NCBI GenBank assembly: GCA_022821235.1
Contig: JAJEEA010000419.1
Coordinates: 2,095-66,094, forward strand
Source: Vicinamibacteria bacterium
GTDB taxonomy: Bacteria > Acidobacteriota > Vicinamibacteria > Vicinamibacterales > UBA8438
Length of the DNA stretch: 64,000 nt
Direction: 5' to 3'
This document shows positions 1,676 to 60,320 of the stretch, one piece after another. A program made the position numbers and the translations under genes. The notes beneath the pieces were generated by a model, which saw only the letters and a program-made list of their open reading frames with translations, was not told the DNA's origin and ran no database searches. Each line of letters begins with the position of its first letter. Position 1 is the first letter of the stretch.

Positions 1676-1872
1676 CCCGACAACCGTCGCCTTCGGCTGG
1701 GCGCCCAGCCGACCCTCCAGGAATCCGCGCCGTTCCATGGCGCCGACTCCTGCCCCGCAGCCTTCGCCGTCGCTCCGCCTCTTGGCGCCCAGCCACCCTC
1801 GACGGATCCGCGCCGTCCACGGCGCCGGCTCTTGCCCGTACGGCCGTCAGTTCGCCGCGCGGAGCCGCGCCG

Positions 1873-3583: not shown

Positions 3584-3789
3584 ACGCCGGTCGTCGCCCT
3601 CGGCTCCGCCCGGTGCCCGAGCTGGTCTCCAGAGGGCCAGCGGGATTCCGCCACCGCGGGGCCGCCCGCCGAATCTCCGGGCAGCTTACCTGAGCGTCCG
3701 GGGCGGAGGACTGCGAGGTCCGCCGGCTCCCGGACGGACGCCTGCCGGTGTCCGCGCTCCTGGGCCGCGGACGCCGGGGCGGCGGGCCG

Positions 3790-6993: not shown

Positions 6994-8169
6994 TCAGGTC
7001 GATCGCCGTCCTTGGCGCCCATCCGACCCTGCGGGAGTCTGCGCCGTTCTACGCGGCAGGCTCCCGGCCGGGGGGAACGGCTCGGAGAGCGGCAGGGTCG
7101 GATGCCCGGGTCCGGGCGGGGCGTCCTCCTCCGCCGACAGGTTGTGCATGGTCACCCCGAGCAGGCGGACGGGCCGCGTGCGGGCCTCGGTCCGGTCCAG
7201 CAGCCGCCGCGCCCGCAGGACGATCTGCTGGGCGTCGCGGGTGGCGGGGTCGGCGCTGTGGCTGCGGGTGACGGTGGCGAAGTCCGAGTAGCGCACCTTG
7301 ATGGTGACGGTGCGGGCCGCGAGCCCCTTGCGCTCGAGCCACGCCGCCCCGCGCCGGGCCAGCCCGTCGAGCTCGCGGCGGATCTCGTCCGGGTCGGTGA
7401 GATCGGTCGGGTAGGTGTGCTCCGAGCCGGACGACTTGACGACGCGGTCGGGGCTGACCGGACGGTCGTCCTTCCCCTCGGCGAGCCGGCGCAGCCAGTC
7501 GATGCGGCTGCCGACGGCGCGCCGGAGCACCTGCGGGTCCGCGGTGCGCACGTCGACGAGCTTCACCACGCCCGCGGCCCGGAGGCGCTTCGCGGTGACG
7601 GGGCCGACGCCCCAGAGCGCGTCGACCGGGAGCTGCCGCAGGAAGGCGTCGACCCGCTCGACGGGGATGACGGTCAGGCCGTCGGGCTTGTCCCAGTCGG
7701 AGGCGATCTTCGCGAGGAACTTGTTGGGCGCGGCCCCGGCCGAGACGGTCAGCTTCGTCTCGTCGCGGATCCACCGCTTCAGCCGGCGGGCCACCGTCGT
7801 GGCGAGCGGCTCGTTCCAACTGTTGCTCGTCACGTCGAGGTACGCCTCGTCGAGCGAGAGGGGCTCGACGAGGGGGGTGACCGAGCGGTACATGTCGAAG
7901 ATGCGGTCCGAGATGGACCGGTAGCGGGCGAAGTCGGGGGGCACCACGACCAGCTCCGGGCAGCGGCGCACCGCCCGCGCCATCGACATCGCCGAGCGCA
8001 CCCCGAACTTCCGGGCCTCGTAGCTGGCGGCGGCGACCACCCCGCGCCGGTCGGGCCGCCCGCCGACCGCCACCGGGCGGCCGCGCAGCGACGGGTCGTC
8101 GCGCTGCTCCACCGACGCGTAGAACGCATCCATGTCGAGGTGGAGGATGCGGCGCACGGGAGAAGCCAC
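6994..8169 (-). CDS. dinB: DNA polymerase IV (Y-family)
   Basis: ILHLDMDAFYASVEQRDDPSLRGRPVAVGG and the SLDEAYLDVT catalytic blocks. GTG start. Confidence 0.9.
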   Translation of the reverse strand: MASPVRRILHLDMDAFYASVEQRDDPSLRGRPVAVGGRPDRRGVVAAASYEARKFGVRSAMSMARAVRRCPELVVVPPDFARYRSISDRIFDMYRSVTPLVEPLSLDEAYLDVTSNSWNEPLATTVARRLKRWIRDETKLTVSAGAAPNKFLAKIASDWDKPDGLTVIPVERVDAFLRQLPVDALWGVGPVTAKRLRAAGVVKLVDVRTADPQVLRRAVGSRIDWLRRLAEGKDDRPVSPDRVVKSSGSEHTYPTDLTDPDEIRRELDGLARRGAAWLERKGLAARTVTIKVRYSDFATVTRSHSADPATRDAQQIVLRARRLLDRTEARTRPVRLLGVTMHNLSAEEDAPPGPGHPTLPLSEPFPPAGSLPRRTAQTPAGSDGRQGRRST

Positions 8170-8198
8170 GGCGAAAGTCTATACTTGATCTCTTCACC

Positions 8199-10079
8199 AT
8201 GGCCGACGAGAAACCGCAGAAGACGACAAAGAGACCGCTCGCCTCGCCCGGCGCCTGGCAGGAGGCGCGGGTGCTGGTGCACGCCCACCGCTACCGGCTG
8301 GCCCTCGGGCTGGCGCTGATGCTCGTCAGCCGGGCGGCCGGCCTCGTGCTGCCGTGGATGTCCGGTTACGTGGTCGACGACGTCATCGCCCGGGGCCGGG
8401 CCGATCTCCTCCTGCCCCTCGCCCTGCTCGCGGCCGGGGCCACCGTGGTCCAGTCGGGCACCGGTTTCGCGCTGTCGCAGGTGCTGGGGGTGGCGGCGCA
8501 GCGCGCCATCACGGAGATGCGCAAGCGGGTGCAGCGGCACGTGACCCGGCTGCCCATCGGCTACTTCGACGCCACGCAGACCGGCGTCCTCATCTCGCGG
8601 GTGATGACCGACGCCGAGGGCATCCGCAACCTCGTGGGCACCGGTCTGACCCAGCTCGCGGGCGGCTTCATGACCGCGACCGTCGGCATCGGGGTGCTGT
8701 TCTACCTGAACTGGCGCCTGACCTCGGTCACCCTGTTCATCCTCGTGGTCCTCGGGGCGGCGATGGCGACGGCGTTCTCGCGGCTGCGGCCGCTCTTCCG
8801 CGAGCGCGGGAAGATCAACGCGGAGGTGACGGGGCGGCTCGCCGAGACCCTCGGGGGGGTGCGCATCGTCAAGGCCTACAACGTGGAGAAGCGCGAGCAG
8901 CGGGTGTTCGCCGGCGGCGTCCACCGTCTGCTGCGGAACGTGGCGAAGACGGTGACCGGGGTCTCCGCCACCACGTCGGCCGCCTCCCTCGCCATCGGCG
9001 TCATCGGGGCGCTGATGATCGTCATGGGGGGGCAGGCGATCATTGCCGGCGCGTGGACCGTCGGCGACCTGCTGCGATACCTGCTGTTCACGGGGGTGGT
9101 GGTGGCCCCGGTCATGCAGATCGCGTCCATCGGCACCCAGATCACCGAGGCGTTCGCGGGGCTCGACCGCATTCGCGAGATTCTCGGCACCCCGACCGAG
9201 ATCGACGAGGACGCGTCGCGCCAGCCGGTCGGACGGGTTGAAGGCCGCGTCGCCCTCGACCGGGTCACGTTCTCCTACACCGAGGGGGTGCCGGTGCTGA
9301 AGGACGTCTCGCTCGAGGCGCCGGCCGGCAGCACCACCGCCCTCGTGGGGTCGAGCGGGTCGGGCAAGAGCACCCTGGTCAGCCTGATCATCGCGTTCAA
9401 CCGGCCCCAGGCGGGCCGTGTGCTCGTCGACGGACACGACCTCGCGGACCTGAGGCTGGCCGAGTACCGGCGGCAGCTCGGCGTCGTGCTGCAGGAGAAC
9501 TTCCTCTTCGACGGGTCGGTGGCCTCGAACATCAGCTTCGTGCGCCGCCACGCCACCCGGGCCGAGATCGAGGCGGTGAGCCGCATCGCCCACTGCGACG
9601 AGTTCATCCGCGGCTTCCCCGACGGCTACGACACAATCGTCGGCGAGCGCGGCATCAAGCTGTCGGGGGGGCAGCGGCAGCGGGTGGCCATCGCCCGCGC
9701 GATCCTCGCCGACCCCCGCATCCTCATCCTCGACGAGGCGACGTCGAGCCTCGACAGCGAGAGCGAGGCGATGATCCAGGACGGGCTGCGGGCGTTGCGC
9801 CAGGGCCGCACCACGTTCGTCATCGCCCACCGGCTGTCGACCATCCGCAGCGCCGACCAGATTCTCGTGCTCGAGCAGGGCGAGATCGTCGAGCGGGGGA
9901 CCCATGCCGAGCTCTACGCGGCGGGCGGCCGCTACCGCGAGCTGCACGACACGCAGTACCGGCTCGAGCAGGACCGCTTCATCAATCCCGGCGAGGACTT
10001 CACGCCCGAGCCCGAGCTGGTGGGGGCGTCCGGCGGGCACGGGGGCGCCGGGGCGGGGGGCGGCGCCGGTCGCGGGTGA
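8199..10079 (+). CDS. ABC exporter, fused permease/ATPase (MsbA/multidrug type)
   Basis: Six-TM N-terminal half. Walker A GSSGSGKST, signature LSGGQRQR, Walker B ILILDEATS. Confidence 0.9.
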   Translation: MADEKPQKTTKRPLASPGAWQEARVLVHAHRYRLALGLALMLVSRAAGLVLPWMSGYVVDDVIARGRADLLLPLALLAAGATVVQSGTGFALSQVLGVAAQRAITEMRKRVQRHVTRLPIGYFDATQTGVLISRVMTDAEGIRNLVGTGLTQLAGGFMTATVGIGVLFYLNWRLTSVTLFILVVLGAAMATAFSRLRPLFRERGKINAEVTGRLAETLGGVRIVKAYNVEKREQRVFAGGVHRLLRNVAKTVTGVSATTSAASLAIGVIGALMIVMGGQAIIAGAWTVGDLLRYLLFTGVVVAPVMQIASIGTQITEAFAGLDRIREILGTPTEIDEDASRQPVGRVEGRVALDRVTFSYTEGVPVLKDVSLEAPAGSTTALVGSSGSGKSTLVSLIIAFNRPQAGRVLVDGHDLADLRLAEYRRQLGVVLQENFLFDGSVASNISFVRRHATRAEIEAVSRIAHCDEFIRGFPDGYDTIVGERGIKLSGGQRQRVAIARAILADPRILILDEATSSLDSESEAMIQDGLRALRQGRTTFVIAHRLSTIRSADQILVLEQGEIVERGTHAELYAAGGRYRELHDTQYRLEQDRFINPGEDFTPEPELVGASGGHGGAGAGGGAGRG

Positions 10080-13566: not shown

Positions 13567-14973
13567 TCAGCACAGCGCGGCGAAGACCGCGTCTGCGTCT
13601 ACGACGTGCGGATCCTTGGCTGTCGCGGGAATGGCGGTAGTCCGAGGCGTGAACGCCGCGTCCACGACTTCCAGGTCGGCGATGCCGGGCACGGCCGGCG
13701 GGCCCGCGGGAGGCCGAAGGGCCTTCGGTGCCTCCGGTCGCGACCTCCACTTGGCCTCGCCGACGAGCACACGCCGGCCGTCGACGGAGCGCGCCACCAC
13801 GTCGTGCTCCGGGTCGTTGCCGCGCCAGTAGCGCTGTGCCGGCTCCCACGGGCCGAGCGCGCCGAGGGGGCAGTCGGTTCGGTGCAGCAAAGGTACGGCT
13901 GTGCGGCACAGCTCCTCCCAGGCGAGGGCCTCGAGACGCGGCCGGTGGCGGCGCCAGTACTCCAGCCGCGTCTCGGGAGGCGCTTCGGCGAGTGCGGTCC
14001 GGTGGGGGGCCACGACCCGGAACCACAGGCGCAGGAACGGGTCGTCGATGCGGTAGAGACTGCGCCGGCCCGATCGGGGATCGCTCCCGAACGGCGTCTC
14101 CCGGCGGACCAGACCCATCTCGGCGAGCGCGGCCAACGGACGGGCGAGGCTGGGGGCGGGGCGGCCGAGGCGGCCGGCGATCTCGCTGACCCGGTGGGCG
14201 CCGGCGCCGATGACGTCGAGCAGGGGGCGGAGGGCGGTGGCCGGCGGCACTTCCTCCATCAGCAGGCGGTCGGGCTCCAGGTGCAGCGGACCGGCGGGGT
14301 CGAGCACGAGGGTGTCGACGGCGCGGTCGACGTCGCGGCCGAACCGTTCGGCGAGCTCCCAGTAGCGCGGCATGCCGCCCCAGAGCGCGTAGAGGGCGAC
14401 GAGGTCGCGCGGGTCGGCGCCGGGGACGAGCTCGGCGAGGTAGCCCGGCTTCAGCGGGCGCACCGCGAACGCCTCGCGGGCGCGGCCGTAGAGCGGGGCG
14501 GCCGCGTCGAGCACCGCGCCGTGCATCATGCGCTGGCTCGATCCGCTCACCACGACCGTGGGCCGGCCCGGCGCGCCGTCGATCCAGGTCTGAAGGACGC
14601 CGGTCAGCGTCGGGTCGGCGGCGATCAGGTACGGCAGCTCGTCGAGCACGAACGGACCGGGCCAGGCGCTCCCGCCCGACTCGGCGGCGAGCCGCAGCAG
14701 GAACGAACGCCAGTCCGGGTACTCGACGTCGTCGAATCCGGGGAACCGCCGGGCCACTGCCGTGGCGAGGTAGCGCCGCTGCACGGCCGGCACCGATCGG
14801 TCGGCCGCCGCGTAGAGGCCGTCGTGGCGCCGCGACCACTCGACGAGCAGCCGGGTCTTGCCCACCCGCCGCCGCCCCCAAAGGACGGCGAAGGCGCCGG
14901 GCACGTCCAGCACCCCGTCCAAACGCCGCAGCTCTTCACCCCGATCCAGAAAACGCACCGCTTTATTATGCAC
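13567..14973 (-). CDS. AAA ATPase (archaeal-ATPase type) with DUF234-like C-terminus
   Basis: Walker A GRRRVGKT, Walker B-like FVLDELPYL, and a winged-helix-like tail (HRVSEIAGRLGRPAPSLARPLAALAEMGLV). Confidence 0.65.
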   Translation of the reverse strand: MHNKAVRFLDRGEELRRLDGVLDVPGAFAVLWGRRRVGKTRLLVEWSRRHDGLYAAADRSVPAVQRRYLATAVARRFPGFDDVEYPDWRSFLLRLAAESGGSAWPGPFVLDELPYLIAADPTLTGVLQTWIDGAPGRPTVVVSGSSQRMMHGAVLDAAAPLYGRAREAFAVRPLKPGYLAELVPGADPRDLVALYALWGGMPRYWELAERFGRDVDRAVDTLVLDPAGPLHLEPDRLLMEEVPPATALRPLLDVIGAGAHRVSEIAGRLGRPAPSLARPLAALAEMGLVRRETPFGSDPRSGRRSLYRIDDPFLRLWFRVVAPHRTALAEAPPETRLEYWRRHRPRLEALAWEELCRTAVPLLHRTDCPLGALGPWEPAQRYWRGNDPEHDVVARSVDGRRVLVGEAKWRSRPEAPKALRPPAGPPAVPGIADLEVVDAAFTPRTTAIPATAKDPHVVDADAVFAALC

Positions 14974-36149: not shown

Positions 36150-36356
36150 TCACGCGCGACGTGGCCCATTTCCTTCTTGCTGCGCTGCAGCAATGCGATT
36201 TCGGATGGTGTCAACATCCGGTGCGCGAGCGAGGTACCGAGCTTCCGATTCAGTAAGGCAGTCGAAGGCGTGACCGAACCGTTCCCGCCACCACTCCTCG
36301 AAGTTCCGGCCGTGCTTCTGTCTGAGCTCATGCAGTTGCTCCCGGGATGGACTCAA
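36150..36356 (-). CDS. hypothetical small ORF (TTG start) overlapping the stop of the PRTase-domain gene
   Basis: ORF only. It may instead be a frameshifted tail, because the adjacent frame reads HRMLTPSEIALLQRSKKEMGHVAREVL. Confidence 0.2.
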   Translation of the reverse strand: MSPSREQLHELRQKHGRNFEEWWRERFGHAFDCLTESEARYLARAPDVDTIRNRIAAAQQEGNGPRRA

Positions 36357-36673
36357 CTTGGCCGAGTACGTCTGGCCGGCAGGACGACGGCGCCGATGAC
36401 CGTGCAGCCCTGCTGCTCCACCCAGCCGCGCAGGTTCGCCAGAGTGCCTCCCTGACCGATGAAGTCGTCAATCGTCACGTAATGGCGTCCCTTGGCCACT
36501 TCCCCCGTGAAGGCGGCCTGACGGGCGAGGCGTGCGTAGCCATCCGCACCCGTATGGGACACCACGTTGGTCTGTACAACTGTATCCTCGCATTCCAGTC
36601 CAAGCCGATCGTTCAGCAGTCTTGCCAGCGCAATCGGAATCGCGTTGACTCCCTCACGCTCGTAGGGACACTG
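36353..36673 (-). pseudogene. 3' part of partner gene B2: phosphoribosyltransferase domain (IS-disrupted)
   Basis: PRPP-binding motif GRHYVTIDDFIGQGGTLANL. The frame is open up to the IS junction at 36673. Confidence 0.65.
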
Positions 36674-37950
36674 CGCTAAATTAACTTGCCATCTTGTGGA
36701 TTCTGTGCTTTACTGACCGCATGCGGCGAGACGTGGAGTTGGAAGCCACCATCGTAGCCAAGTACGTCGCGGTGGCGCCTGTACTGGACGAACGTAGTCG
36801 TCGCCGATGGGCCGCCGCCGAGTCGTTGGCGATCGGCTACGGCGGCGATGCGCTGGTATCGTCCGCCACGGGTCTGGCTCGGGAGACAATTCGCAAGGGA
36901 CGCAGGGAGATTGCCGGCGGCGAGGAGCCGACAGGTCGCGTGCGGCGCGCCGGAGCGGGTCGCCCCCGCATTCAGGAGGGTCAACCCGGCATTCTGACTG
37001 CTCTTGAGGCGTTGGTGGACCCGTTGACGCGCGGGGACCCGACCTCGCCGTTGCGCTGGACGTGCAAGAGTCGCGCGAAGCTCGCGGCGGCGTTGACCGA
37101 GCAGGGGTGGCACGTCAGTTCGACCACGGTGGGCCGTCTGCTTAACCGCTTGGGCTACAGGCTGCAATCGGTTCGCAAGCGGCAGGAAGGTACCACGCAC
37201 CCGGACCGCAACGCCCAGTTCGAGCACATCAACGCGACGGCGGCCGCGCATCTGACGGCCGGGCAACCGGTGATCTCGGTCGACACGAAGAAGAAGGAAC
37301 TGGTGGGGAATTTCACGAATGCGGGCCGGGAATGGCAGCCGAAAGGGAGGCCGTCGGCGGTGCGCGTGCATGATTTCCCGAGCGACGCGGAGGGCAAGGC
37401 GATTCCGTACGGCGTTTACGACATGGCCCGCAATGAAGCGTGGGTGAGCGTTGGGCGAGACCACGACACCCCGGCCTTTGCCGTGGCCTCGATTCGGCAC
37501 TGGTGGCAGCGCATGGGCGAAAGGGCCTATCCGGACGCCAGGACCTTGTACATCACCGCCGATGCGGGTGGGAGCAACGGGTATCGGTGTCACGCGTGGA
37601 AGCACGAGCTTCAGCGCTTGGCCGATGAGATTGGCCTGACGATCCAAGTGAGCCACTTTCCCCCCGGCACGAGCAAATGGAACAAGATCGAGCACCGACT
37701 GTTCTGCCACATCACGGCGAATTGGCGTGGGACTCCGCTGACGACTTACGAAACCATTGTCGACCGCATCGGCAACACGCGAACGGCGGCGGGGCTTCGC
37801 GTGCAAGCGGAGCTCGACGCTGGCGAGTATCCTACCGGGGTGAAGGTGAGCAAGGCGCAGTTGGCCGCAATGATGTTGGTGCGTGATGAATTCCACGGGG
37901 ACTGGAATTACAAATTCACTCCCCGATGAAGTTGGCAACTTTATATCGAT
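36674..37950 (+). mobile_element. ISAzo13-family insertion sequence (1277 bp) with 5-bp target duplication CACTG
   Basis: CACTG at 36669-36673 and again at 37951-37955. Imperfect terminal inverted repeats around a TTGCCA core. A single transposase ORF. Confidence 0.75.
36721..37929 (+). CDS. ISAzo13-family DDE transposase
   Basis: Blocks VISVDTKKKELVGNF, AIPYGVYD, ITADAGGSNGYR and HFPPGTSKWNKIEHRLF are characteristic of the Rhodopirellula/ISAzo13 transposase family. Confidence 0.9.
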   Translation: MRRDVELEATIVAKYVAVAPVLDERSRRRWAAAESLAIGYGGDALVSSATGLARETIRKGRREIAGGEEPTGRVRRAGAGRPRIQEGQPGILTALEALVDPLTRGDPTSPLRWTCKSRAKLAAALTEQGWHVSSTTVGRLLNRLGYRLQSVRKRQEGTTHPDRNAQFEHINATAAAHLTAGQPVISVDTKKKELVGNFTNAGREWQPKGRPSAVRVHDFPSDAEGKAIPYGVYDMARNEAWVSVGRDHDTPAFAVASIRHWWQRMGERAYPDARTLYITADAGGSNGYRCHAWKHELQRLADEIGLTIQVSHFPPGTSKWNKIEHRLFCHITANWRGTPLTTYETIVDRIGNTRTAAGLRVQAELDAGEYPTGVKVSKAQLAAMMLVRDEFHGDWNYKFTPR

Positions 37951-38427
37951 CACTGTCCATAGTCAGCAACCGTGCGGCCCAGCCGGACTGACGGGCCGCG
38001 CGAGGCCCACCACCGCGCGCTCGACAGCCGGTCGATACGGGCGACCCGCGAGTCGGCGGCATATGCCTGCTTTACGGACTCCGTCGCGATCACGCCGCCG
38101 TCCAACCGCCGCCGATCGTCTGTAGCGAGGGCTTCCGCACACCAGGCGCAGTCGTCCGCGGGCCGGACGGGCCGTGCCGGCTCGCAGGGCAACAGCCGCT
38201 CCTGCGTCGCCATCTTCTTGAGCAATTTCCTGCCCCCGCCGATGCCATGGCCGCGCGTCGCCACGGAAGAGACCGCTCCAGGCGCCGTCCCGGAGGTCAC
38301 GCACCAGCCCCTCCGTCAGCATCGCTTCACGGATGGTCTCCAGGCGGGCGGCGCACTCACCCTCGGTCGGGTACGAGGTGACGTCGAACACGTCCGGTGT
38401 GATCGCGTAGTCGGCCAGAAGCGCCAT
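37951..38427 (-). pseudogene. 5' part of partner gene B2 (N-domain shared with B1); frameshift at C5 run 38233-38237, then cut by the IS
   Basis: MALLADYAITPDVFDV... starts with a TGATG overlap on the A2 stop. It aligns with the B1 N-terminus (YAIEPDALV; GDRDRRRILRKL vs GDARPWHRRGRKLLKK; PAEQCW vs PADDCAW). Confidence 0.55.
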
Positions 38428-40417
38428 CAGAAGATCTCCCGCAGGTCTTCCTCGAAGAAGCCGCCCGGCCACGCCTTCACCAGCTCGCCCCTCTCGTTGA
38501 GCGGCATCTCTCGAATCAGCGTCTCGGCCCCGTCCGGCTCCACGAACAGCACGTTGACGTCCTCGTGGCGGACCTCGGGGGCGCCGTCCGGCAACGTTCC
38601 CCCGCTGGTCTCCCGCATGCGGCGCATGATGCGCAGGAACAGATGCTCGCTGTGAGTCTCGATCAGGAACACGTTGCCCTCAGCGGCTCCCGTCGCGAAG
38701 AGATCCCCGAGCTCGACCTGCAACCGCGGATGGACGTGCAGCTCCGGCTGCTCGATGGCCGTGATCTCCGGGCGATCCGGATCGAGCGCAGCCACCACCA
38801 CCGGCAGCAGTTGCGAGATCCCGACACCGATGTCGGACGTTCGCACCGGCAGGTCGGACCTGGTGGCCACGAGCTGGATCTCCCGGTGAATCGGCGCGTC
38901 GGCAATGTGCTCGAACCGGGCCCGGACCTTGTCGGGCGCCTCCCTCATGATGTCGTCCGGTGATTCCCCGCCCGACATGCCCGCCAACGCGGCGAAGAAC
39001 GGCGCTCCCCACTCCTCGCCTTCCACGCTCTTGTTCAATATTCCGACCAACGGCGTGGCCGCGGGAAGATGAACAGCTCTCCGCACCTGCAGCGTGTAGC
39101 CCGTGTCCAGCCGATCCTCTCGCGACAGCCAGTCGCTCAGTCTACGAATCACCGTCGCGCTCATGGCCCCGGCGTCGAGTTGCGGCGAGTCGATCAGCTT
39201 TCGCGTATCCTGATCCACGTTGACGCGCGCATGACCGTTCAGGAGATCCCAGGCTGCAGATCCGTCGGCCCAACGTCGACGGTCGGATCGTGCTCGTTCA
39301 CCGCCGGCGGCCGGATGCAGGTTGCGCAGGGGCCCGACATATCTGTACTGGGCCAGCCCATCACGCAAGAGGCCGCCGATCCCGACCACCAGCGTTGACA
39401 CGCCGTGCCAGAGTTCGTGATAGTCGTCATCGAAACCCTCTTCCAGCTCCATATCGAGATGGTGGCCAAAGGACGGCAGGGCACCACACGAACGGCCTTG
39501 GCGGACCGCCATGCGATGGTGCGCCGGCCCGAACGACTGCGGTTCGGGCGCCTCCCGTACTTGTCCGACCTCCGGCAGAGCCGCGGTCTCCAACGCCTGA
39601 CGCGCGGCCCGGAGCTTCTCCAGTTTCGCTTCGAGCGCCGCCAGGGTTCCCTCCCGAAGAACGTGGTCGAGCATTGGATGCGACAGGTTGGCCAGCAGGT
39701 CCGCCTTGTCATCGCCGGCCGATGCCGCAATGTGACCGACGATCTCTCCGTCGACGCCGACCTCGTAGTCGCTCAGAACCGGCCCGTTACGCTCTGTCGA
39801 CCACCGAACGGTCAGCCCCACCCATCCGGTCTCGATGCGACCGGACCGACTTCCCACGGGTACGGCGCGATGCGCATCGCTCCCGCGAGCTCCGGCAACG
39901 CTCGATTTCGCAGGTTCAGCTCGAAGCGGAGCCGCACCGATCGGGCCAAGTCGTGCCCGTGGACGAATTGGCGGAACCCGCCCAGGTCGATGTGATCGCC
40001 GCCGAGACGGGTCTCGTGTGCATCGACGTTGCGCTGGCTCAGAATCTCGTGCGCGTAGCAGAGCGCGTGCAGCACCGTGCTCTTGCCGGCGCTGTTGCGG
40101 CCGAACAACAGGGTGATGGGCCGGAGCTCGATGCGGACCGGCCGACCGATCCCCTTGAAGTTCTCGATCTCGACGGCCCTGATCACCGGCGACTTCCGTT
40201 CCGGCGCCGTGTCCGCCGGTTCCCTTTCGTCCGCCGAGGACCGCCCTGCCTGGATGGACCGCGACGGCAATGCACCGGCCGAAGCCCTCTCCTCGGGCAC
40301 GTCCGACCCGGCGAGTCGTGGGGTCTGCATATCACCCATCGGTCCGTCGCCCATGGGAACCGCAGTGTCGTCACCGCAATCGAGCTCACGCAGCATAGTG
40401 CCGTCCACTCCTCGCAA
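38427..40417 (-). CDS. ABC-type (AAA_15/AAA_21-like) ATPase A2, paralogue of A1; apparent frameshift near 39845-39880
   Basis: VEIENFKGIGRPVRIELRPITLLFGRNSAGKST (Walker A), IEQPELHVHP (Walker B), ETHSEHL (H-loop), C-terminal WPGGFF. Split over ORFs 39812..40417 and 38427..39857. Confidence 0.75.
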
Positions 40418-40542
40418 ATCCGCTCCCGATGTTCACCGCCGCACCCTCGTACCGCGCCTTCCAGCGCGGCCGGTGCTGACCGATGAGCGTTCAAATCCGT
40501 TCGCGCGTTCGCGAAGGCGACAAGACGCGGAATGCCTGCCTG

Positions 40543-41559
40543 TCAAGACCTTCCGGCAGGTCGACCGCGACGATTCTCAGCCGATCGCCGACGACTGGTC
40601 GACTTGTCTGCGGTCACCGTGAATTCACCGTCCTTGTCGAAGAACGGACTGTCGTCGCCAAACCCCTCCCGAACGCGTTTCCATTCCTGATCGTCGAGTA
40701 GCCCGACCGGCTGCACCTTGCCGGGCTCCAGGTCAAGCCCCTTGTCCAGTCGGTAGCCGCCGCGATCGGTCAAGATGTACCGTGCATGGAAATCATCCGG
40801 GGCATCGCTTCGAATGCGCCAGCGGCAGATGCGCACCGACCCGACCCCCGCCTTCAGCATGCCAGGAACATGCGACCTGCACCGCCCTTCGAACTCCTCG
40901 CTGCTCGGCCCGCCTTGCACGGACGGGGATGCCCTCCGTGCCAACGTGTGGATCTCCGCCCGGAGATTACCGTGTACCGCTTGCGCCGCCAGCGCCAGAC
41001 ACGCTCGCACAACGGGACGCCATCGGCTGACGGAGGGATCAAAATGCGGATCGATCAGCAGCAATTGGCGGCTGTTGCGCACGAGGGTACCGACGTGCGC
41101 CGCCAGCGCAGCCGATTCCCGCAGTACCGGAACCTCGCGCGGAACGGCCAGTTTCTCGTGCGATTCGTCGACGTCCTCCTCACGAACCACGTCCGGATGA
41201 TCCTCCGGATTCCGCGTCGCGAGGAGGGCGTGGAACTCCCGGGCTGCAGCCTGTCGCGCAACGGCGTTCCGAATCCAACACTGTTCCGCGGGCGTGATCG
41301 CACCGTCATAGTCGTCTGACCCGCCCAGCCGGATCATCTTGACGTTGGACTGGTCCAGCTTTCGCAGGATCCGCCGTCGATCACGGTCGCCGAGATCGGT
41401 ATTCTCTCGGCAAGCGGCGCGAACCAGTGCCTTCCAGCGCTTTCGGGTCGGATACGCGGCAATCGCCCGGCCATGCTGGAACCCCATCAGATCGAGAATG
41501 TGCCGGCACTTGTCCCACGTGACGAGCGCATCGGGCTCGATTGCGTACGGATAGAGCAT
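40543..41559 (-). CDS. partner protein B1: shared N-domain + C-terminal PLD/MIT_C-like HxR(x)4D..GLD motif
   Basis: ATG overlaps the A1 stop (TGATG). C-terminus has LLLIDPHFDP ... FHARYILTDRGGYRLDKGLD. No other family is recognised. Confidence 0.65.
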   Translation of the reverse strand: MLYPYAIEPDALVTWDKCRHILDLMGFQHGRAIAAYPTRKRWKALVRAACRENTDLGDRDRRRILRKLDQSNVKMIRLGGSDDYDGAITPAEQCWIRNAVARQAAAREFHALLATRNPEDHPDVVREEDVDESHEKLAVPREVPVLRESAALAAHVGTLVRNSRQLLLIDPHFDPSVSRWRPVVRACLALAAQAVHGNLRAEIHTLARRASPSVQGGPSSEEFEGRCRSHVPGMLKAGVGSVRICRWRIRSDAPDDFHARYILTDRGGYRLDKGLDLEPGKVQPVGLLDDQEWKRVREGFGDDSPFFDKDGEFTVTADKSTSRRRSAENRRGRPAGRS

Positions 41560-43436
41560 CAGAAGAGCTCGTCGTCCCGTTCGTCGAAGAAGCCCTGCGG
41601 CCAGTGGTCGACGAACTCGCCGGTCTCGTCGATCCGAAGCCGCGTCGCCCTGACCTCGCCGTCGACCTGCTCCACGTAGACCACGGAGACCTGGTCCGGC
41701 TTCAGCGCAGGCTTTCCCTCGGGCAGCTCGCCGCTGGCCGTCTCTTCGATGCGACGCAGGAGGCGCAACATCAGGTGCTCGCTGTGGGTCTCGATCAGGA
41801 ACGCCCTGCCGCCGACCGCCTGTTCGGCGAAGAGATCGCCGAGTTCGACCTGAAGGCGGGGATGAACGTGCAACTCCGGCTGCTCGATGGCGGTGATCTC
41901 CGGTCGGTCCGGATCGAGAGCGGCGACCACCACCGGGAGTAACTGCGAGATGCCCACTCCGATTTCGGACGTTCGCACTTGCAGGTCGGTCCCGCTGGTC
42001 GCAATGAGCTGTACCTCTCTGCGAACTGAGGCGTTGGCGATCCCGTCGGCCAAGGCATTGATCTGGTCCGCTGGCGCCTTCCTCACGATGTCGCCACGAG
42101 ATTCAGTCCCGGACAGGTTTGCCGCCTTCGCCTTGGCCGCCGCCCAATCCTCGCCCAGAACGCTTTCGTTCAGCACATCCACCAACGGGGTAGTCGTAGG
42201 AAGCTCGATGTCGTTGCGCACTCGCAACTCGTAGCCCGTATCCAGCCGATCCTCGCGCGAGAGCCAGTCGCTCACCCGTGGGATGACCATGGCCTGATTG
42301 CGCTTGCGCGGGTTGGGAAAGTCGCGCGCAATTCGGCTCAACGTATCCTGCGCACGGACATTCAGAAGGTCCCAGGCCGCGGAGCCGTCGGCCCAACGCC
42401 CGGGGACGGACCTGTCCCGCTCTACGACCGTGCGCGGATGCAACTCGCGCAGCGGACCGAGATACCTGAACCGGGCCAGTTCGTCGCGCACAAGACTTCC
42501 GATACCGGGGAGCAGCATCGACAGTCGGTGGCGGGAATGCTGATCGAAGTCGCCGAAAGCGTCGTCTCTTGTGACCCAGAGCATCTGCCCCAATGGTGGC
42601 AAGGCGGAAGACGGCGTGGAAAGCACCGCCATGCGACGGAGTTCCCGGCCATACTCCACCGATCCGCGCGCCTCCCGCACGTGTCCGACCTCTTGCGACG
42701 GGATGAAGTTCCCCTGGTCGTCCATCCCGTATTCGAGCAACGGATGCGACAGGTTCGTCAACAGGATCGCCTGCCCGGAGAAGGCCGGTTCGGTGATTCG
42801 CCCCACGAGCTGTCCGTCGACACCGATCTCGTAGCGACTGACAATCGGCTCGTCCCGTTCTCGCTGCCATTCGGCCGTAAGTTCCAGCCACCCTGCCTCT
42901 GCACCGTCGAGGACGTCGCGTTCCTCCAGCAAGGGTATGTCGCCTGTCGGCAACATGACCGGCACGTGGGTACCCCACCCCGCGAGCTCGGGCAGGCTCC
43001 GATCCCGCAGGTCCAACTCGAAGCGAAGTCGCAAGGGACGCGTCGAATCGTGCCCATGGACGAAACGCCGGAACCCGCCGAGGTCGACCTGGTCGCCGCC
43101 GAGCTCGGTGGTGCGTGCGTCGACGTTACGGTGGCTGAGGATCTCGTGTGCGTAGCACAGCGCATGGAGGATCGTGCTCTTGCCGGCGCTGTTGCGGCCG
43201 AACAGCAGGGTGATCGGCCGCAGATCGATCCGCACCGGACGGCCGATGCCCTTGAAGTTCTCGATCTCGATGGCGGTGATCAGCGGGACCTCCTGCTCGG
43301 GTTGTTCAGTGTCGCTCGACTGGTGCGACGTCTCCGACCCGAACGCCGGTTCTCCCTTCAGCCCCGGATCCGGCCCTTGCGGCCGTCCCGGCGCAGACTG
43401 GGAGGCGTTGCGTGGATGCGTCGGTTCGTCTGTCAT
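41559..43436 (-). CDS. ABC-type (AAA_15/AAA_21-like) ATPase A1 with DUF3696-like C-terminus
   Basis: IEIENFKGIGRPVRIDLRPITLLFGRNSAGKST, IEQPELHVHPRLQVELGDLF, IETHSEHLMLRLLRRIEE, and ...DHWPQGFFDERDDELF at the end. Confidence 0.85.
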   Translation of the reverse strand: MTDEPTHPRNASQSAPGRPQGPDPGLKGEPAFGSETSHQSSDTEQPEQEVPLITAIEIENFKGIGRPVRIDLRPITLLFGRNSAGKSTILHALCYAHEILSHRNVDARTTELGGDQVDLGGFRRFVHGHDSTRPLRLRFELDLRDRSLPELAGWGTHVPVMLPTGDIPLLEERDVLDGAEAGWLELTAEWQRERDEPIVSRYEIGVDGQLVGRITEPAFSGQAILLTNLSHPLLEYGMDDQGNFIPSQEVGHVREARGSVEYGRELRRMAVLSTPSSALPPLGQMLWVTRDDAFGDFDQHSRHRLSMLLPGIGSLVRDELARFRYLGPLRELHPRTVVERDRSVPGRWADGSAAWDLLNVRAQDTLSRIARDFPNPRKRNQAMVIPRVSDWLSREDRLDTGYELRVRNDIELPTTTPLVDVLNESVLGEDWAAAKAKAANLSGTESRGDIVRKAPADQINALADGIANASVRREVQLIATSGTDLQVRTSEIGVGISQLLPVVVAALDPDRPEITAIEQPELHVHPRLQVELGDLFAEQAVGGRAFLIETHSEHLMLRLLRRIEETASGELPEGKPALKPDQVSVVYVEQVDGEVRATRLRIDETGEFVDHWPQGFFDERDDELF

Positions 43437-43465
43437 GTTCGTAACCTACCTGCTCCACCTACATA

Positions 43466-43481
43466 AGCAAGGCGCGTGCCA
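43466..43481 (-). promoter_or_regulatory. sigma-54 (-24/-12) promoter TGGCAC-gcgcc-TTGCT
   Basis: The reverse complement of 43466-43481 reads TGGCACGCGCCTTGCT. It lies 25 nt after the RtcR-like stop and about 30 nt before the A1 ATG (43436). AGGTAGG Shine-Dalgarno-like sequence 8 nt before the ATG. Confidence 0.65.
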
Positions 43482-43506
43482 GCACGTCCCGAGCCAACCG
43501 CTTGCA

Positions 43507-45032
43507 TCAACCGCGCCGGTTCTCGATCCGCCGCGTCACGCCGTAGCGATGCATCCAGTTCGTGAGTGTCTGGTAGCTGGGCAGCCCGATCAACTCGGCC
43601 GCTCGCGTCTTGTTGCTGGCTGCCTCGTCGAGCGCGCGCTCCAGGTAGTGACGGGCGAGGTCGGCCATCAGGGCCGGGAGATCGAGGCCGCCGCGGAGTG
43701 GCCGACCCAGCAGATCGGCTGACGCGTCCGTCGCCGTGCGGAGCAGTTCCTCGCCCACATCCCCGGCCTCGATGACGGCGTGCGGGCGTCCACAGCACGA
43801 GCCGGTCCATCGTCGCCTGCAGCTCCCGCACGTTGCCGGGCCACAGGTGCCGCAACAGAAGGTTCCTGGCCTTTGGAGAGAGAATCTTCTGTTCGACGCC
43901 GGGCTGGTCGGCGAACTTTCGGTTAGCGGCCGCCAGGAAGTGATCGATGAGCGGCGTCAGGTCGCCCTGGCGCTCGCGGAGCGGCGGCAGCCGGATGACG
44001 CCGGTCGCCAGCCGGTAGTAGAGGTCCTCCCGGAACCGGCCCGCCGCCACCTCGGCCGCGAGGTCGCGGTTGGTGGCCGCGATCACCCGCACGTCGACTG
44101 CCACCGCGCGGTCGGCGCCGAGGCGCCGCACGGTCTTCTCCTGCAGCGTGCGCAGCAGCTTGACCTGGGCGTCGGGGGGCAGCTCGCCAATCTCGTCGAG
44201 GAACAGGGTTCCGCCGTCGGCCGCTTCGAAGTGGCCGGCGCGGGCGCGGACGGCGCCGGAGAACGCGCCCCGCTCGTGGCCGAAGAGCAGCGATTCGACG
44301 AGGCCCTCGGGCAGCGCGCCGCAGTTGACGTCCTCGAAGCGTCCGCGGGCGCGGCGGCTCTCGGCGTGGATGGCCCGGGCGAACAGCTCCTTGCCCGTGC
44401 CGGACGCGCCCTCGATAAGGACAATGACGTGGTGCGGGGCCACCCGGCGGGCGCGGGCTCTTGCCCGGTCCATCAGCGGACTGCGGCCCACTATTCGGTC
44501 GAACGCGGGAGACGCCGTCGGCAGGCCGGTGGTCAGCCGTTCGATCTTCGCATCGGCATGCCGCAGCAACGCCGGCACGTACTCGGCGGCGATGTCGAAG
44601 GGCACCGAGACCGTGCGCACGCCGGTCTGGGGGTGCGACTGAATCAGCTCCGCGGGATAGCGGGTCTTGGCGAGCAGCACCCAGACCGCCTGCATGGCGG
44701 GCGTGCCGGGGCTGACGTGCACCGCGAGGTCAGCGTCGGCGCCGAACTCGTCGCGCGTGAAGTCGAAGGCCCGAACCACCGCGGCGTGGATGGCGCCGTA
44801 GTCGGTCGGATCGGACAGGACTTCGGTCCGAAGATGGATGGAAGGAGCGCCCGACTCGACCAGCCGGTCGAACGAACGCCCGGTTCTCCGACGCCGGATA
44901 GTTGGAGAGCAGCACCAGCGCATCGAGCCGGCGAGCGGCGACGACGCTGCCGACGGGACCCCGACCCGGCCGCCCCCCCCGCGCGCAGTCGAGGTCGGTC
45001 TGGCCGATCCAGGTCAGGAGCACCGCGGGCAC
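43507..45032 (-). CDS. RtcR-like sigma-54-dependent activator (CARF-type N-domain + AAA+ + Fis HTH); two apparent frameshifts (~44870-44885, ~43775-43790)
   Basis: GTG start then [43 protein letters not shown] resembles E. coli RtcR HITTGTHVAQICWFLLAEARYLPARLIQS (recalled from memory). [25 protein letters not shown]. Tail [21 protein letters not shown]. Confidence 0.75.
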
Positions 45033-53085: not shown

Positions 53086-53673
53086 TCACCCACCGAACAA
53101 CTCGTCGACCGCGAAGCTGAGCCCGGCCACGCTGGCGGCGGCCACCTCGTCGCCGCGCCTCCGGACGCGCCGGGTCGCGTAACCGTCCGGGCCGGGATCG
53201 GTATGGACGATGACGGCGGCGGCATCCACGTCCACGAGCCACATCTCGGGAATGCCGGCGCGGCCGTATCGGGGCGCCTTCTCCAGCCTGTCGTAGCGCA
53301 GCGACGAGTCGGCCACTTCGATGACGAGGAAGATATCCCCCGGCTCGGGATGGCGATCGGTGTAGAACGCCTTCCGCCGCCGCGCCACCACGAGGTCCGG
53401 TTGCGGCTCCGTATGGGGGTCGAGTCGGACCGGATTCTGGACGCTCACGTGCGCCCGGCCGGCGAGACGCGTCACGAGCAACTCGGTCAGACGACTCACC
53501 AGCCCCGCATGCAGCGCGCCGATCGGCGTCATTTCGACGATCTCTCCGTCGATCAGCTCGACCCGATCGTCCTCGGTGAAGATCCCCGCCTCGCCCATGC
53601 GGGCGAACTCGTCGACCGTGAAGCGGTACCGCTGGACGCCGGCGACGCGTTCCTGCTCTGCTGCCAAGGCCAT
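53086..53673 (-). CDS. Uma2-family (DUF820) PD-(D/E)XK endonuclease
   Basis: ELIDGEIVEMTPIG..H, PDLVVA, LVIEVADSS, K..YGRAGIPEMWLVD. Confidence 0.8.
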   Translation of the reverse strand: MALAAEQERVAGVQRYRFTVDEFARMGEAGIFTEDDRVELIDGEIVEMTPIGALHAGLVSRLTELLVTRLAGRAHVSVQNPVRLDPHTEPQPDLVVARRRKAFYTDRHPEPGDIFLVIEVADSSLRYDRLEKAPRYGRAGIPEMWLVDVDAAAVIVHTDPGPDGYATRRVRRRGDEVAAASVAGLSFAVDELFGG

Positions 53674-54820: not shown

Positions 54821-55024
54821 GAGTCCAGCGAGCCGATGGGCAGCACGATGTACTGCTTCCCCCCCGTGCAGGTAGGTGATCGGAGAGCCGACGTTGCCGG
54901 CCGGGAACGTCGGCTCCCAGACCACGTCGCCGGTCTCCTTGTCGAAGGCGCGGAAGCCCTTGCCGCCGTCGGGGCCGGCGCCGGGCGGAATGCGGACCAT
55001 GATGGGGTCGCCCTCGCTGACGAA
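54821..55024 (-). pseudogene. duplicate fragment of the 3' end of the PQQ dehydrogenase gene 57982..59949
   Basis: Manual alignment to 58018-58218 gives about 9 substitutions plus a C7 versus C6 run difference over about 200 nt. It encodes FVSEGDPIMVRIPPGAGPDGGKGFRAFDKETGDVVWEPTFPAGNVGSPITY.... Confidence 0.8.
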
Positions 55025-57981: not shown

Positions 57982-59949
57982 CTACGGCAACGCCAGCGCG
58001 ATCCACTCGCCGGGGTGGTCCAGCGAGCCGATGGGCAGCACGATGTACTGCTTCCCCCCGTGCATGTAGGTGATGGGCGAGCCGACGTTGCCGGCCGGGA
58101 AGGTCGTCTCCCACACCACGTCGCCGGTCTCCTTGTCGAAGGCGCGGAAGCCCTTGCCGGCGTCGGGGCCGGCGCCGGGCGGGGTGCGGACCATGATGGG
58201 GTCGCCCTCGCTGACGAAGAGGAGGCTTCGGGTGAGCAGGGTCATCGCCCGGCCCGGCTGGCCCAGCGGGGGCAGGTCGAGGTGGGCGATCTCCGGGTGG
58301 TCGCGGGGGCCGTCGCCGTTGGCGACCATCCACACGTGCTCGCCGGTGTTCATGTCGATGGCGGTGATGCGGCCGTACGGGGGCTTGAGCAGCGGGAGGC
58401 CGCGCGGGCCCTGGGGGAACGCGCGGGTGCCGCGCGTGTAGCGCACGTTCATGCGGTCGGGGTTGCCGGGGGTCAGGTCGGCCGCGAACGTCCCCGTCAC
58501 CGACGGCACGTAGAGCATGCCGGTCTCGGGGTCGAAGCCGGCCCCGCCCCACTCGGCCCCGCCCACCGAGCCGGGGAGCTGCAGGGTGCCCTTGGTGTCT
58601 TCGTCGCCGTCGCCGCGGATCGAGGGCGGGGTGTAGATCTCCCCCAGCACGAAGGGCGCGGCGATCTCCACGGCCTCGGCCCGCAGCTCGGGGGTGAAGT
58701 CGATGAGGGTGTCGACCGAGATGCCGTGCACGTCGAACGGGGCGGGCTTGGTGGGGAACGGCTGGGTGGGCGAGATCCACTCGCCGGGGGTGTCCGAGCC
58801 GGGCACGGCCCGCTCGACGATGGGCCAGACCGGCTCGCCGGTGACCCTGTCGAAGGTGTAGGCCATGGCCTGCTTCGTGAGCTGCACCACCGCCTTGATC
58901 TCGCGGCCCTCGACGACGATGTCCATCAGGATCGGCGCCACGTTGTTGTCGTAGTCCCAGAGGTCGTGGTGCACCGTCTGGAAGTGCCACACCATCTCGC
59001 CGGTCTCGGCCCGCACGCACACGAGGCTGTTGGCGTAGAGGTTGTTGCCGGGGCGGTGCCCGCCGTACATGTCGTTGCTGGGGGCGCCGGTGGGCAGGTA
59101 GACGAGGCCGAGCTCCTCGTCGGCGCTCATCATCGTCCAGACGTTGCCCATGCCCGAGTACTCCCACGACTCGTCGAGCCAGGTCTCGACCCCCGGCTCG
59201 CCGGCCCGGGGAATCGGGTTCCAGGTCCACCGCAGGGTGCCGGTCCGGACGTCGTAGGCGCGGACGTAGCCGGGGCGGTTCTCCATGGTCAGGGGATGGT
59301 CGGCCATGGCCTGCCCCACCACGACCACGTCGCGGACGACGAGGGGCGGCGAGGTGAAGTTGAAGTCGACCAGCTCGTCGGTGTCCTCGAAGACGCGGAG
59401 GTCGACCATGCCGCCGTCGCCGAAGTCGGAGACCAGCCGGCCGGTGTCCACGTCGGTCGCCAGCAGGTACGGCGGCCGCACCGACAGGATTCGGCGGCCG
59501 GCCCCGGCGTCGTCCTCCCAGTAGCCGACCCCGCGATTGGCGGCGCCCCGCGGGGTCTCGTCGTCGGTGAGGAACGGCAGCTCCTGCACCCAGCGGGTCT
59601 CGCCCGTCGCCGGGTCGAACGCCTCGACGATGCCGATGCCGTTCGAGGCGTAGAGCACCCCGTCGACCATCAGCGGCGTCGACCGCAGGTTGTTCGAGTA
59701 GCGCAGGTTGTCCCAGCGCGCGTGCAGGCTCGCGTCGACGGCGGGGCGGCGCCACACGATGCCGAGGTCGCCGACCGTGTCCGCGTTGATCTGGTCCAGC
59801 GCCGCGTAACGGGTGAACCCGCTGTCGCCGCCGTGGACGCGCCACTCGCCGTCGGTGCCGTGCTGGGCCGCCGCGGCCCCCGCCACGACCAGCATGCCCA
59901 GCAGGGCCGCAACGCCGCGGGCCGGTCTCGCCGTCGTCTTGTTCGCCAT
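57982..59949 (-). CDS. secreted PQQ-dependent dehydrogenase (beta-propeller quinoprotein)
   Basis: ATG at 59949 with a signal peptide. GGDSGFTRYAALDQINADTVGDL, repeated propeller W-motifs, and tail GSLDHPGEWIALALP. Confidence 0.85.
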   Translation of the reverse strand: MANKTTARPARGVAALLGMLVVAGAAAAQHGTDGEWRVHGGDSGFTRYAALDQINADTVGDLGIVWRRPAVDASLHARWDNLRYSNNLRSTPLMVDGVLYASNGIGIVEAFDPATGETRWVQELPFLTDDETPRGAANRGVGYWEDDAGAGRRILSVRPPYLLATDVDTGRLVSDFGDGGMVDLRVFEDTDELVDFNFTSPPLVVRDVVVVGQAMADHPLTMENRPGYVRAYDVRTGTLRWTWNPIPRAGEPGVETWLDESWEYSGMGNVWTMMSADEELGLVYLPTGAPSNDMYGGHRPGNNLYANSLVCVRAETGEMVWHFQTVHHDLWDYDNNVAPILMDIVVEGREIKAVVQLTKQAMAYTFDRVTGEPVWPIVERAVPGSDTPGEWISPTQPFPTKPAPFDVHGISVDTLIDFTPELRAEAVEIAAPFVLGEIYTPPSIRGDGDEDTKGTLQLPGSVGGAEWGGAGFDPETGMLYVPSVTGTFAADLTPGNPDRMNVRYTRGTRAFPQGPRGLPLLKPPYGRITAIDMNTGEHVWMVANGDGPRDHPEIAHLDLPPLGQPGRAMTLLTRSLLFVSEGDPIMVRTPPGAGPDAGKGFRAFDKETGDVVWETTFPAGNVGSPITYMHGGKQYIVLPIGSLDHPGEWIALALP

Positions 59950-60320
59950 CGGTTCCCCGTCTCCTGCTTGACTTCTGCCTGACGCTGTCCCCGCCCCGGA
60001 CGCCGGCGCCCTGGCGGCAGCGTCGACTGCCCCAACCGAGCCGGGCCGGAGTCCCCGCAGTGCCGCCGCGCAGACTCCCGGCCCGGAAACCGTCGCCGGC
60101 AACTCCGATTCGCCGCCCGACAGCCGTCTGCCCCGCTACTCGTGCCGCGGCTACCAGGATCCGCGGTGAAGGTCCCCGCTGCATTCGAGCGGCGATGCAT
60201 CCCGTCTGACGGCGTCGTTCCTCGGTTGCCTAATGGCCACCCGCGCCTTGTCAGGCGAGCCCGTCGGCCGTCCACTGGCGCCCTCCGGGCGCGGTGCAAC
60301 GCGGGGCTTCACCACGGGCG

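Follow-up and report, generated by a model that had tools for sequence, protein, structure and literature searches.

Whether a regulator of the RtcR type can hold a defence module under transcriptional control is the question raised by a minus-strand locus in a 64,000-nucleotide stretch of DNA from a Vicinamibacteria bacterium (assembly GCA_022821235.1, contig JAJEEA010000419.1, positions 2,095 to 66,094; hereafter the window, whose own numbering is used throughout). In this locus, a gene encoding an RtcR-like activator is followed by a sigma-54-type promoter element and by two tandem gene pairs, A1-B1 and A2-B2, each consisting of an ABC-type ATPase (A) and a partner protein (B). A sequence-only reading of the window had proposed that the RtcR-type sensor was rewired to license transcription of an ATPase-effector module, in a combination which it took to be undescribed. 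The prevailing view is that most known defence systems of bacteria are expressed constitutively, with triggering at the protein level, and clear cases in which infection induces the transcription of defence genes are few. The analysis reported here, which combines profile searches, structural modelling and two comparative surveys, indicates that the RtcR-like activator probably licenses sigma-54 transcription of two tandem Menshen-like ATPase-effector modules, in a locus that is now decaying.

The RtcR-like activator

The activator gene (43507-45032, minus strand) encodes an RtcR-like CARF domain, a sigma-54 AAA+ core and a Fis-type helix-turn-helix (HTH), spread as sequenced over three frames. 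The largest of these (44923-43433) matches Pfam Sigma54_activat (1.8e-66), AAA_lid_14 and RtcR, as well as the PADLOC model RtcR_PspF2--CARF_AAA_HTH (1.3e-147, 490.8 bits, profile positions 49-402 of 481), and the translation of the gene carries a GAFSGA loop. The third frame (43758-43507) gives a weak HTH_8 match of 20.1 bits, just below the cutoff of 22. The frame-restored product of 507 amino acids (aa) scores 26.7 bits with Pfam RtcR against a cutoff of 23.1, and the CARF motifs GP, DPTDY and SPGTPAM are kept across the alignment of the activator family. The domains and the loop read from the sequence were recovered by these searches, whereas the single open reading frame (ORF) described from 45032 to 43507 was not, as the gene is interrupted by two 1-nt insertions.

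By sequence, the activator is RtcR-like and not a bona fide RtcR, because its score with the NCBIfam equivalog model RNA_repair_RtcR (348.8) lies below the cutoff of 650 and because it is not linked to rtcA or rtcB. In agreement with the sequence-only reading, RtcA and RtcB found no match among the 30 largest flanking ORFs of the window, nor were they found in the related loci.

The sigma-54 promoter element

The -24/-12 element TGGCACGCGCCTTGCT (TGGCAC-N5-TTGCT) is an exact match to the sigma-54 consensus and lies at 43481-43466 on the minus strand, 25 nt past the activator TGA (43509-43507), exactly where it had been reported, and the A1 ATG follows about 30 nt further on. No other match occurs in the 64 kb when one mismatch is tolerated, and the expectation for an exact match is 0.03 per shuffled window. 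No other promoter-like element was seen between the activator and A1, and a scan for sigma-70 promoters and terminators, which was a simple one that does not model Acidobacteriota promoters, returned nothing relevant on the minus strand. Before A2, no second sigma-54 motif was found in the window or in the intact Vicinamibacterales locus L002 with up to three mismatches. The Sigma54 factor domain was not found among the window ORFs scanned, which were the larger ones.

The position of the element was followed through two surveys, one starting from homologues of B (the B-side survey; one genome per species, 36 loci) and the other from a scan of metagenome DNA with a CARF-domain alignment (the CARF-side survey; 80 loci, with 65 full-length activators followed by downstream sequence). 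On the B side, the 5.4 kb lying just after activator ends hold 16 -24/-12 motifs against 0.08 expected (at most one mismatch, GG/GC fixed, expectation taken from the rest of the same loci), and L024 and L031 carry two-mismatch candidates at the same place. On the CARF side, 52 of the 65 full-length activators carry the motif between -40 and +120 nt from the end of the protein match, where 0.16 would be expected, the most frequent offset being +10 nt. Gaps of 1-60 nt are seen in many loci, and the stop codon often abuts the -24 element, as in ...GATGATGGCAC... and in the GATGA-TGGCAC junctions of L013, L016, L020, L021 and L026-L028; at this point, about 25-50 extra nt are present in the window and in its two nearest relatives. 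Where the stop abuts the -24 element, any upstream activating sequence must sit in the 3' coding region of the activator, and the aligned 3' ends of the activators are dominated by conservation of the HTH coding sequence. In L017 (~7530-7890), imperfect direct repeats of about 100 nt (GGCGGCGGCGATGAA...), unseen in other loci, lie between an N-terminally truncated activator and the motif.

Conservation of the linkage

The same order of genes was found well beyond the window. An activator of 504-507 aa is followed by A, B, A' and B' in L002, L006 and L007, and by A and B in L004 and L013, while in Chloroflexota (L008) and Betaproteobacteria (L010) the genes hsdR, hsdM and hsdS of a Type I restriction-modification (R-M) system stand between the activator and A-B. 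The B-side loci belong to Acidobacteriota, Beta-, Gamma-, Alpha- and Deltaproteobacteria, Bacteriovoracaceae, Gemmatimonadota, Planctomycetota, Nitrospiraceae and Verrucomicrobiota. Directly 5' of B there is an A-type ATPase in 31 of the 36, that is, wherever the contig is long enough (in L046 the match stops ~680 nt short of B). In 20 of the 36, the activator stands upstream in the same orientation, and the succession of activator, -24/-12 motif and cargo is found again in Acidobacteriota, Beta- and Deltaproteobacteria, Planctomycetota and Chloroflexota. The survey of B-homologue neighbourhoods suggested as a check on the licensing proposal thus strongly supports it, both in the linkage and in the excess of motifs given above. 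The comparative side of the proposal is upheld by this linkage and by the motif frequency on the CARF side, whereas a working system in this genome is not, the genes concerned including pseudogenes.

Activator and A-B could also be neighbours merely through the clustering of genes in defence or accessory islands, with the activator controlling itself or distant genes and A-B transcribed from a promoter of its own. Many B-family loci indeed occur without an activator, no upstream activating sequence was identified (no systematic search for one was made), and the promoter scan used here would be blind to promoters particular to Acidobacteriota. Against this, strand, order and promoter position are kept across phyla far beyond chance, the sigma-54 motif is the sole promoter-like element between the activator and A1, and the gaps in many loci measure 1-60 nt. 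Coincidental adjacency is accordingly given very little credence.

The genes controlled by the activator family were counted in the 46 CARF-side loci with at least 3 kb of downstream sequence. A-B follows directly in six, and a Type I R-M operon (hsdRMS) comes directly after the promoter in 33, of which 13 continue with A (and B where the contig allows), five have R-M without A, and 15 end too soon to tell. The remaining seven were filed as other cargo, and include two long HATPase_c proteins (~740 aa), a methylase-specificity fusion with HATPase_c, an SNF2 helicase with NOV_C and an RHS-repeat protein, with three further loci listed as having no defence-type gene (the entries of this listing sum to eight). 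A long HATPase_c protein also occurs in L059, just under the 3-kb cut, L054 is likewise of the SNF2/NOV_C type, and L084 is headed by a related methylase-specificity fusion with AAA_16. Such other cargo, for which the motif is usually present, is headed by activators of this family in L054, L059, L082, L084, L091, L111 and L119.

Judged by sequence comparison, the direct form seen in the window is a reduced variant, the commonest cargo of the family being a Type I R-M operon that ends in A-B. The notion that the sensor had been rewired to A-B is not supported. This census raises the further explanation that the ancestral cargo is Type I R-M and that A-B is a guard or back-up linked to it, in the manner of PrrC/EcoprrI or Rlo, so that the window would show what is left after loss of R-M, an adjacency without regulatory logic of its own. 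The predominance of R-M directly after the promoter fits this, as does the presence of A after hsdS in 13 of the 18 loci with at least 2 kb beyond hsdS. The R-M-first order is found among B-side loci as well (Chloroflexota, Betaproteobacteria, Planctomycetota), and R-M-A-B clusters exist without the activator (L035, L037, L039, L044). The direct form of activator, promoter and A-B is nevertheless stable across Vicinamibacterales, where at least 13 species have it, and was also met in Accumulibacter (L032) and six loci from metagenomes. In several Vicinamibacterales loci, a second -24/-12 motif just precedes the second pair, A'-B', namely in L006 and L026 (at 7465), L025 (7563) and L028 (3977). 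Together, these two observations show that the promoter has been kept for A-B itself, and a mere remnant of an R-M operon is considered unlikely.

A broader formulation can be put forward only tentatively, and with more doubt than the proposal for the window. According to it, the RtcR-like CARF family, found in at least five phyla, would be an inducible sigma-54 immunity switch answering to an RNA-damage or nucleotide signal, deploying Type I restriction first and a Menshen-like ATPase-PLD back-up second; in the reduced form, CARF sensing would replace the Menshen sensor NsnA.

The ATPases

A1 (41559-43436, minus strand) is an intact ATPase of 625 aa, and A2 (38427-40396, minus strand) is its paralogue, carrying a 1-nt deletion and sharing 51-80% aa identity with A1 by tblastn over two frames. 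Both consist of an AAA_15/AAA_21 head and a DUF3696 tail (Pfam; DUF3696 31.3 bits). The profile search suggested as a check on A placed it among defence families, the best PADLOC matches of A1 being NsnB (8.2e-43), PDC-M55A (1.3e-42) and HEC-03B (4e-28). Its motifs comprise a Walker A of the form GRNSAGKST, IGVGIS at the signature site, IEQPE at the site of the Walker B DE, and ETHSEH. The N-terminus is also matched by AriA, GajA, PtuA and Old through shared ATPase motifs, and is weakly similar to RecF/SMC_N. On these matches and motifs, A1 and A2 are classed as Menshen NsnB-like ABC ATPases. Each is coupled to its partner gene by a TGATG stop/start junction, at 41559 for A1/B1 and at 38427 for A2/B2, both as first read.

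The partner proteins

B1 (40543-41559, minus strand) is an intact partner of A1 with 338 aa, a putative PIN-like N-domain and a PLD-superfamily C-domain. The checks suggested for it gave a divided result: searches of Pfam, NCBIfam and PADLOC returned no match, whereas its AlphaFold2 model (pLDDT 89.5) has a PLD fold and is matched by Foldseek to PLD, the nuclease PLD3, the nuclease domain of SauUSI, the C-domain of TrmBL2 and Tdp1. Modelled by themselves (pLDDT 93.6), the first 140 residues of the protein have as their best matches the PIN proteins PAE2754 and PAE0151, which are weak (E 0.11, TM 0.54), and this domain holds no invariant acidic residue among the homologues.

Across 116 homologues, the invariant residues are W95, D170, H172, H204, H258, R260, G267, G268, G274 and D276, and the C-domain shows the pattern DPH...H...HxR(x)4D. 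In B1, the stretch H258-A-R260-Y-I-L-T-D265 is spaced like the HKD motif but has R for K, and the family motif can be written as a variant HxR(x)4[D/E]. As there is one such motif per chain, the putative catalytic site would need a B dimer, if the motif is catalytic. A profile of the B family found nothing among PDB sequences at E<=1, and the best 120 matches listed in a profile search with a broad B-family alignment were all close family members, with no genuine Menshen NsnC among the matches listed. PADLOC on 23 family members gave no match to NsnC, PDC-M55B or HEC-03A, and one member matches the BrxL model at 5e-05.

The sequence-only reading had described the effectors as variable. The intact L002 orthologue of B2, a protein of 318 aa, has the motifs DPH..EIH..FHDRYLIS and a C-terminal domain of the B1 type (28% identity to the C-domain of B1, E 7e-9), and B1 and B2 are for this reason regarded, on sequence, as paralogues of the same architecture and not as different effectors.

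Given these families, A-B might instead be a housekeeping pair for DNA or RNA repair or for chromosome maintenance, a RecF/SMC-like ATPase with a phosphodiesterase, induced by damage in the way that rtcBA is and without any role in conflict. RtcR does control repair genes (PMC7790460), the PLD-fold enzymes include the repair enzyme Tdp1, and the N-terminus of A1 has the weak resemblance mentioned above. Such a role is hard to reconcile with the patchy distribution of the genes, their varied contexts and their embedding in R-M operons, with the foreign third-position composition, tandem duplication and recurrent decay by insertion sequences (ISs) and frameshifts, or with the defence families that are the best matches of the ATPase, and it is regarded as highly improbable. 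The composition of the locus points the same way as the licensing proposal: its GC content is 64-66% against 69-77% in the surroundings, and its GC at third codon positions is 0.78-0.82 against 0.90-0.99 in host genes. The lower GC had been noticed before, with figures (60 against 68%) that these values replace. We regard the locus as an accessory operon of the defence type with a foreign composition.

Decay of the locus in the window

The lesions were mapped against L002, an intact locus of a Vicinamibacterales metagenome-assembled genome (MAG), which is the same stretch as L014 (OZ253457.1), colinear with the window locus and 88% identical to it in nucleotides. Four isolated single-base indels were found. 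Two are 1-nt insertions in the activator, at ~44868-44872 and, as an extra C, at 43784-43786, each causing a +1 frameshift; the others are the 1-nt deletion in A2 (~39840) and a 1-nt insertion in B2 (~38228). Taking out the two bases restores an activator of 507 aa, equal in length to the L002 orthologue, and adding one base to A2 yields a full-length protein that corresponds to the orthologue of 656 aa. The idea that the activator uses programmed frameshifting was considered and rejected, since each orthologue consists of a single ORF and the lesions are 1-nt indels of an ordinary kind.

B2 is further reduced to the 5' half of a B-type gene (37959-38427, minus strand), cut at its junction with an IS, and its C-terminal, PLD-like half was sought in the 64-kb window and is absent. 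The IS, whose presence in B2 had been recognised from the sequence, is a 1,298-bp element of the ISAzo13 family (36661-37958, plus strand) with its transposase at 36694-37929 (Pfam DDE_Tnp_ISAZ013 2.4e-140; NCBIfam transpos_ISAzo13 2.8e-173, 576 bits against a cutoff of 200). Its ends were set by 81.6% identity to a second copy in L020, a search for inverted repeats around it having failed to define them. Beyond the IS lies the frame-broken 3' fragment of a phosphoribosyltransferase-like gene (36150-36660, minus strand), which is outside the system, matches Pribosyltran below cutoff (18.8 bits), carries the motif YVTIDDFIGQGGTL and has no counterpart in the L002 locus. The loss of the C-terminal half of B2, together with this unrelated fragment, suggests that an IS-associated deletion or rearrangement joined the fragment to the IS. 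The layout of two tandem ATPase-effector pairs thus holds, whereas their intactness does not: A1 and B1 are the only intact genes, and three of the five (activator, A2 and B2) are pseudogenes as sequenced. With the activator frame-broken, A1-B1 is probably silent. The surviving 496-aa frame of the activator is without the first CARF strand and without the HTH; that it acts as a deregulated AAA+ core is possible in principle and unlikely.

Inactivation of this locus recurs in other species, as would fit an accessory system that is costly to its hosts. L020 holds an ISAzo13-like element inside its second ATPase, A' (8198-9495; 84% aa identity to the transposase of the window), and L025 an IS21 element (istA/istB) inside the activator (1210-3912). 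When proteins were searched with the CARF domain, only 25 products came back, almost all short or fragmentary (118-311 aa), and no full-length activator. Public assemblies may hold many truncated or frame-broken copies, or the word index may have produced this outcome artificially.

It could be argued that the frameshifts are errors of assembly or consensus, or minority variants, and that the locus is intact and working in the living organism. Three of the four breaks fall in short homopolymer runs (CC to CCC, GGG to GG, AA to AAA), and a one-base correction at each site yields proteins of orthologue length. One further copy was found, the ENA metagenome scaffold L001; it shows 100% identity, but as it stems from the same sample it provides no independent check. 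Its record name, METAG-scaffold_1536, resembles that of a short-read scaffold, insofar as a platform can be taken from a name, and homopolymer indels are unusual in short-read assemblies. Moreover, the 30 flanking ORFs have full-length domain matches and no breaks, all four breaks fall inside 7 kb that also hold the IS insertion and the deletion, and IS elements have inactivated the same locus elsewhere. These points suggest that the lesions are real, and an intact locus behind sequencing errors is judged improbable.

Proposed mechanism

On the reading favoured here, in which an RtcR-like activator licenses sigma-54 transcription of Menshen-like modules, the CARF domain would hold the activator off until a ligand derived from infection or RNA damage binds, by analogy with RtcR, whose CARF domain is inhibitory and which becomes constitutive when the N-domain is deleted (PMC7790460). 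In RtcR, 5' tRNA halves with a 2',3'-cyclic phosphate are bound by the CARF domain and trigger oligomerisation (PMC7790460), and purely by analogy the likeliest ligand here would be an RNA with a 2',3'-cyclic phosphate end. The AAA+ ring would then remodel the sigma-54 holoenzyme, and the modules of ATPase and putative nuclease would be transcribed. At the protein level, an oligomer of the ATPase may grip the nuclease via the DUF3696 tail and gate its release or activation, as Menshen, Septu and PARIS suggest, and release of B from A followed by dimerisation would be a plausible activation step. Transcriptional sensing would in this way stand in for the missing Menshen sensor NsnA.

Several points weigh against this proposal. 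In this window the mechanism cannot run as written, the activator being frame-broken. The activator is absent from 16 of the 36 B-family loci, including alphaproteobacterial R-M-A-B clusters with adequate flanks, so that its control of A-B is optional. With regard to the ligand, the 2014 census of CARF domains states that those of the RtcR type are mostly without the basic residue used by other CARFs (PMC4012209). As to the effector, the PIN-like assignment of the modelled B1 N-domain is weak at the values given above, B matches neither the PADLOC NsnC models nor Pfam MIT_C, and its likeness to NsnC is one of architecture, predicted fold and motif only.

Relation to known systems

The closest regulatory parallel is RtcR-rtcBA of E. 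coli and Salmonella, in which, as here, the activator joins a divergent CARF domain to a sigma-54 AAA+ core that carries a GAFTGA-type loop and to an HTH at the C-terminus, and a sigma-54 promoter drives the cargo (PMC7790460). In that system, the promoter lies in a divergent intergenic region and the cargo serves RNA repair, whereas here the activator is co-directional with its cargo, the promoter abuts the stop codon in many related loci, and the cargo is an ATPase with a putative nuclease, with no rtcA or rtcB.

Activators of this kind have been associated with defence before. The 2014 census of Makarova et al. describes RtcR-like CARF/NtrC-type activators unlinked to rtc and often found with restriction-modification (PMC4012209), and in the CoCoNuT study of Bell et al. 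(2024) RtcR homologues head defence 'superoperons' of co-directional genes, Type I R-M among them (PMC11090510). A regulator of this kind stands at the 5' end of co-directional defence genes in the window, where the cargo is A-B alone, in duplicate, without R-M or CoCoNuT. The general idea of RtcR-like activators at the head of defence operons is therefore already published, and the claim that the combination is undescribed survives only narrowly, for the NsnB/NsnC-like cargo; neither this cargo nor a promoter analysis is mentioned in the accessible text of the two papers (PMC4012209, PMC11090510). The promoter evidence and this cargo are new details. In an in-silico list for Xylella from 2010, one Type I R-M operon is preceded by a sigma-54-like site (PMC3224663), and a 2025 cross-phylum study of sigma-54 regulons mentions neither restriction nor RtcR. 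In the searchable literature, we found no NsnB/NsnC-like cargo of such activators, no Menshen core without NsnA and no -24/-12 element abutting an activator stop.

The modules themselves are closest to Menshen. NsnB departs from the usual ATPase motifs in that E-N replaces D-E and GxG replaces SGG, and in AlphaFold 3 models an NsnB tetramer has the N-domain of NsnC between two of its DUF3696 tails (PMC12065111). A shares with NsnB the DUF3696 tail, a degenerate Walker B (E-Q in A, E-N in NsnB) and the GxG signature. NsnC combines an inactive PIN domain with an effector, one type of which is PLD/MIT_C-like with an HDR motif (inPIN + PB-PLD1), an MIT_C-like domain being found also in BrxL (PMC12065111). 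In architecture, predicted fold and motif, B appears to resemble this inPIN + PB-PLD1 form, with a putative PIN-like N-domain that lacks catalytic acids and an H-x-R motif. The Menshen sensor NsnA (ParB-DUF262 + ParBDB) was found neither in the scanned window ORFs nor in the Pfam lists of the related loci L002-L013, and the activator and sigma-54 promoter occupy the position of the sensor gene.

Septu (PtuAB), PARIS (AriAB) and Gabija (GajAB) share with A-B the two-gene logic of ATPase and nuclease. Their nucleases are HNH or Toprim enzymes, whereas the fold here is that of PLD, and A belongs to the NsnB/DUF3696 branch. To our knowledge, none of the three is under CARF/sigma-54 control. Of the PADLOC candidate systems PDC-M55 and HEC-03, A1 matches PDC-M55A and HEC-03B, and B matches no partner model; we know of no described mechanism or regulator for either.

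Control of restriction and defence by RtcR-like proteins has been proposed since 2014 without promoter evidence or experiments, and the near-universal -24/-12 element makes the idea concretely testable, with a single promoter, activator and sigma factor to consider. The surveys also define a compact three-gene version (activator, ATPase and PLD-type partner) that should lend itself readily to cloning, and point to an ATPase-effector core of Menshen that can function in the absence of NsnA. The decayed copy in the window is a poor subject for experiments, for which intact orthologues exist, such as that of the Vicinamibacterales MAG OZ253457.1 (2,604,490-2,625,506).

Other features of the window

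Elsewhere in the window, an ATPase_2/DUF234 protein (13567-14973, minus strand) and a Uma2-family endonuclease (53086-53673, minus strand) are encoded, neither of them linked to the locus; both families are frequent in accessory regions. A 202-bp direct repeat with 95% identity occupies 54823-55024 and 58018-58218, one copy lying at the 3' end of a PQQ-dehydrogenase gene (57982-60102).

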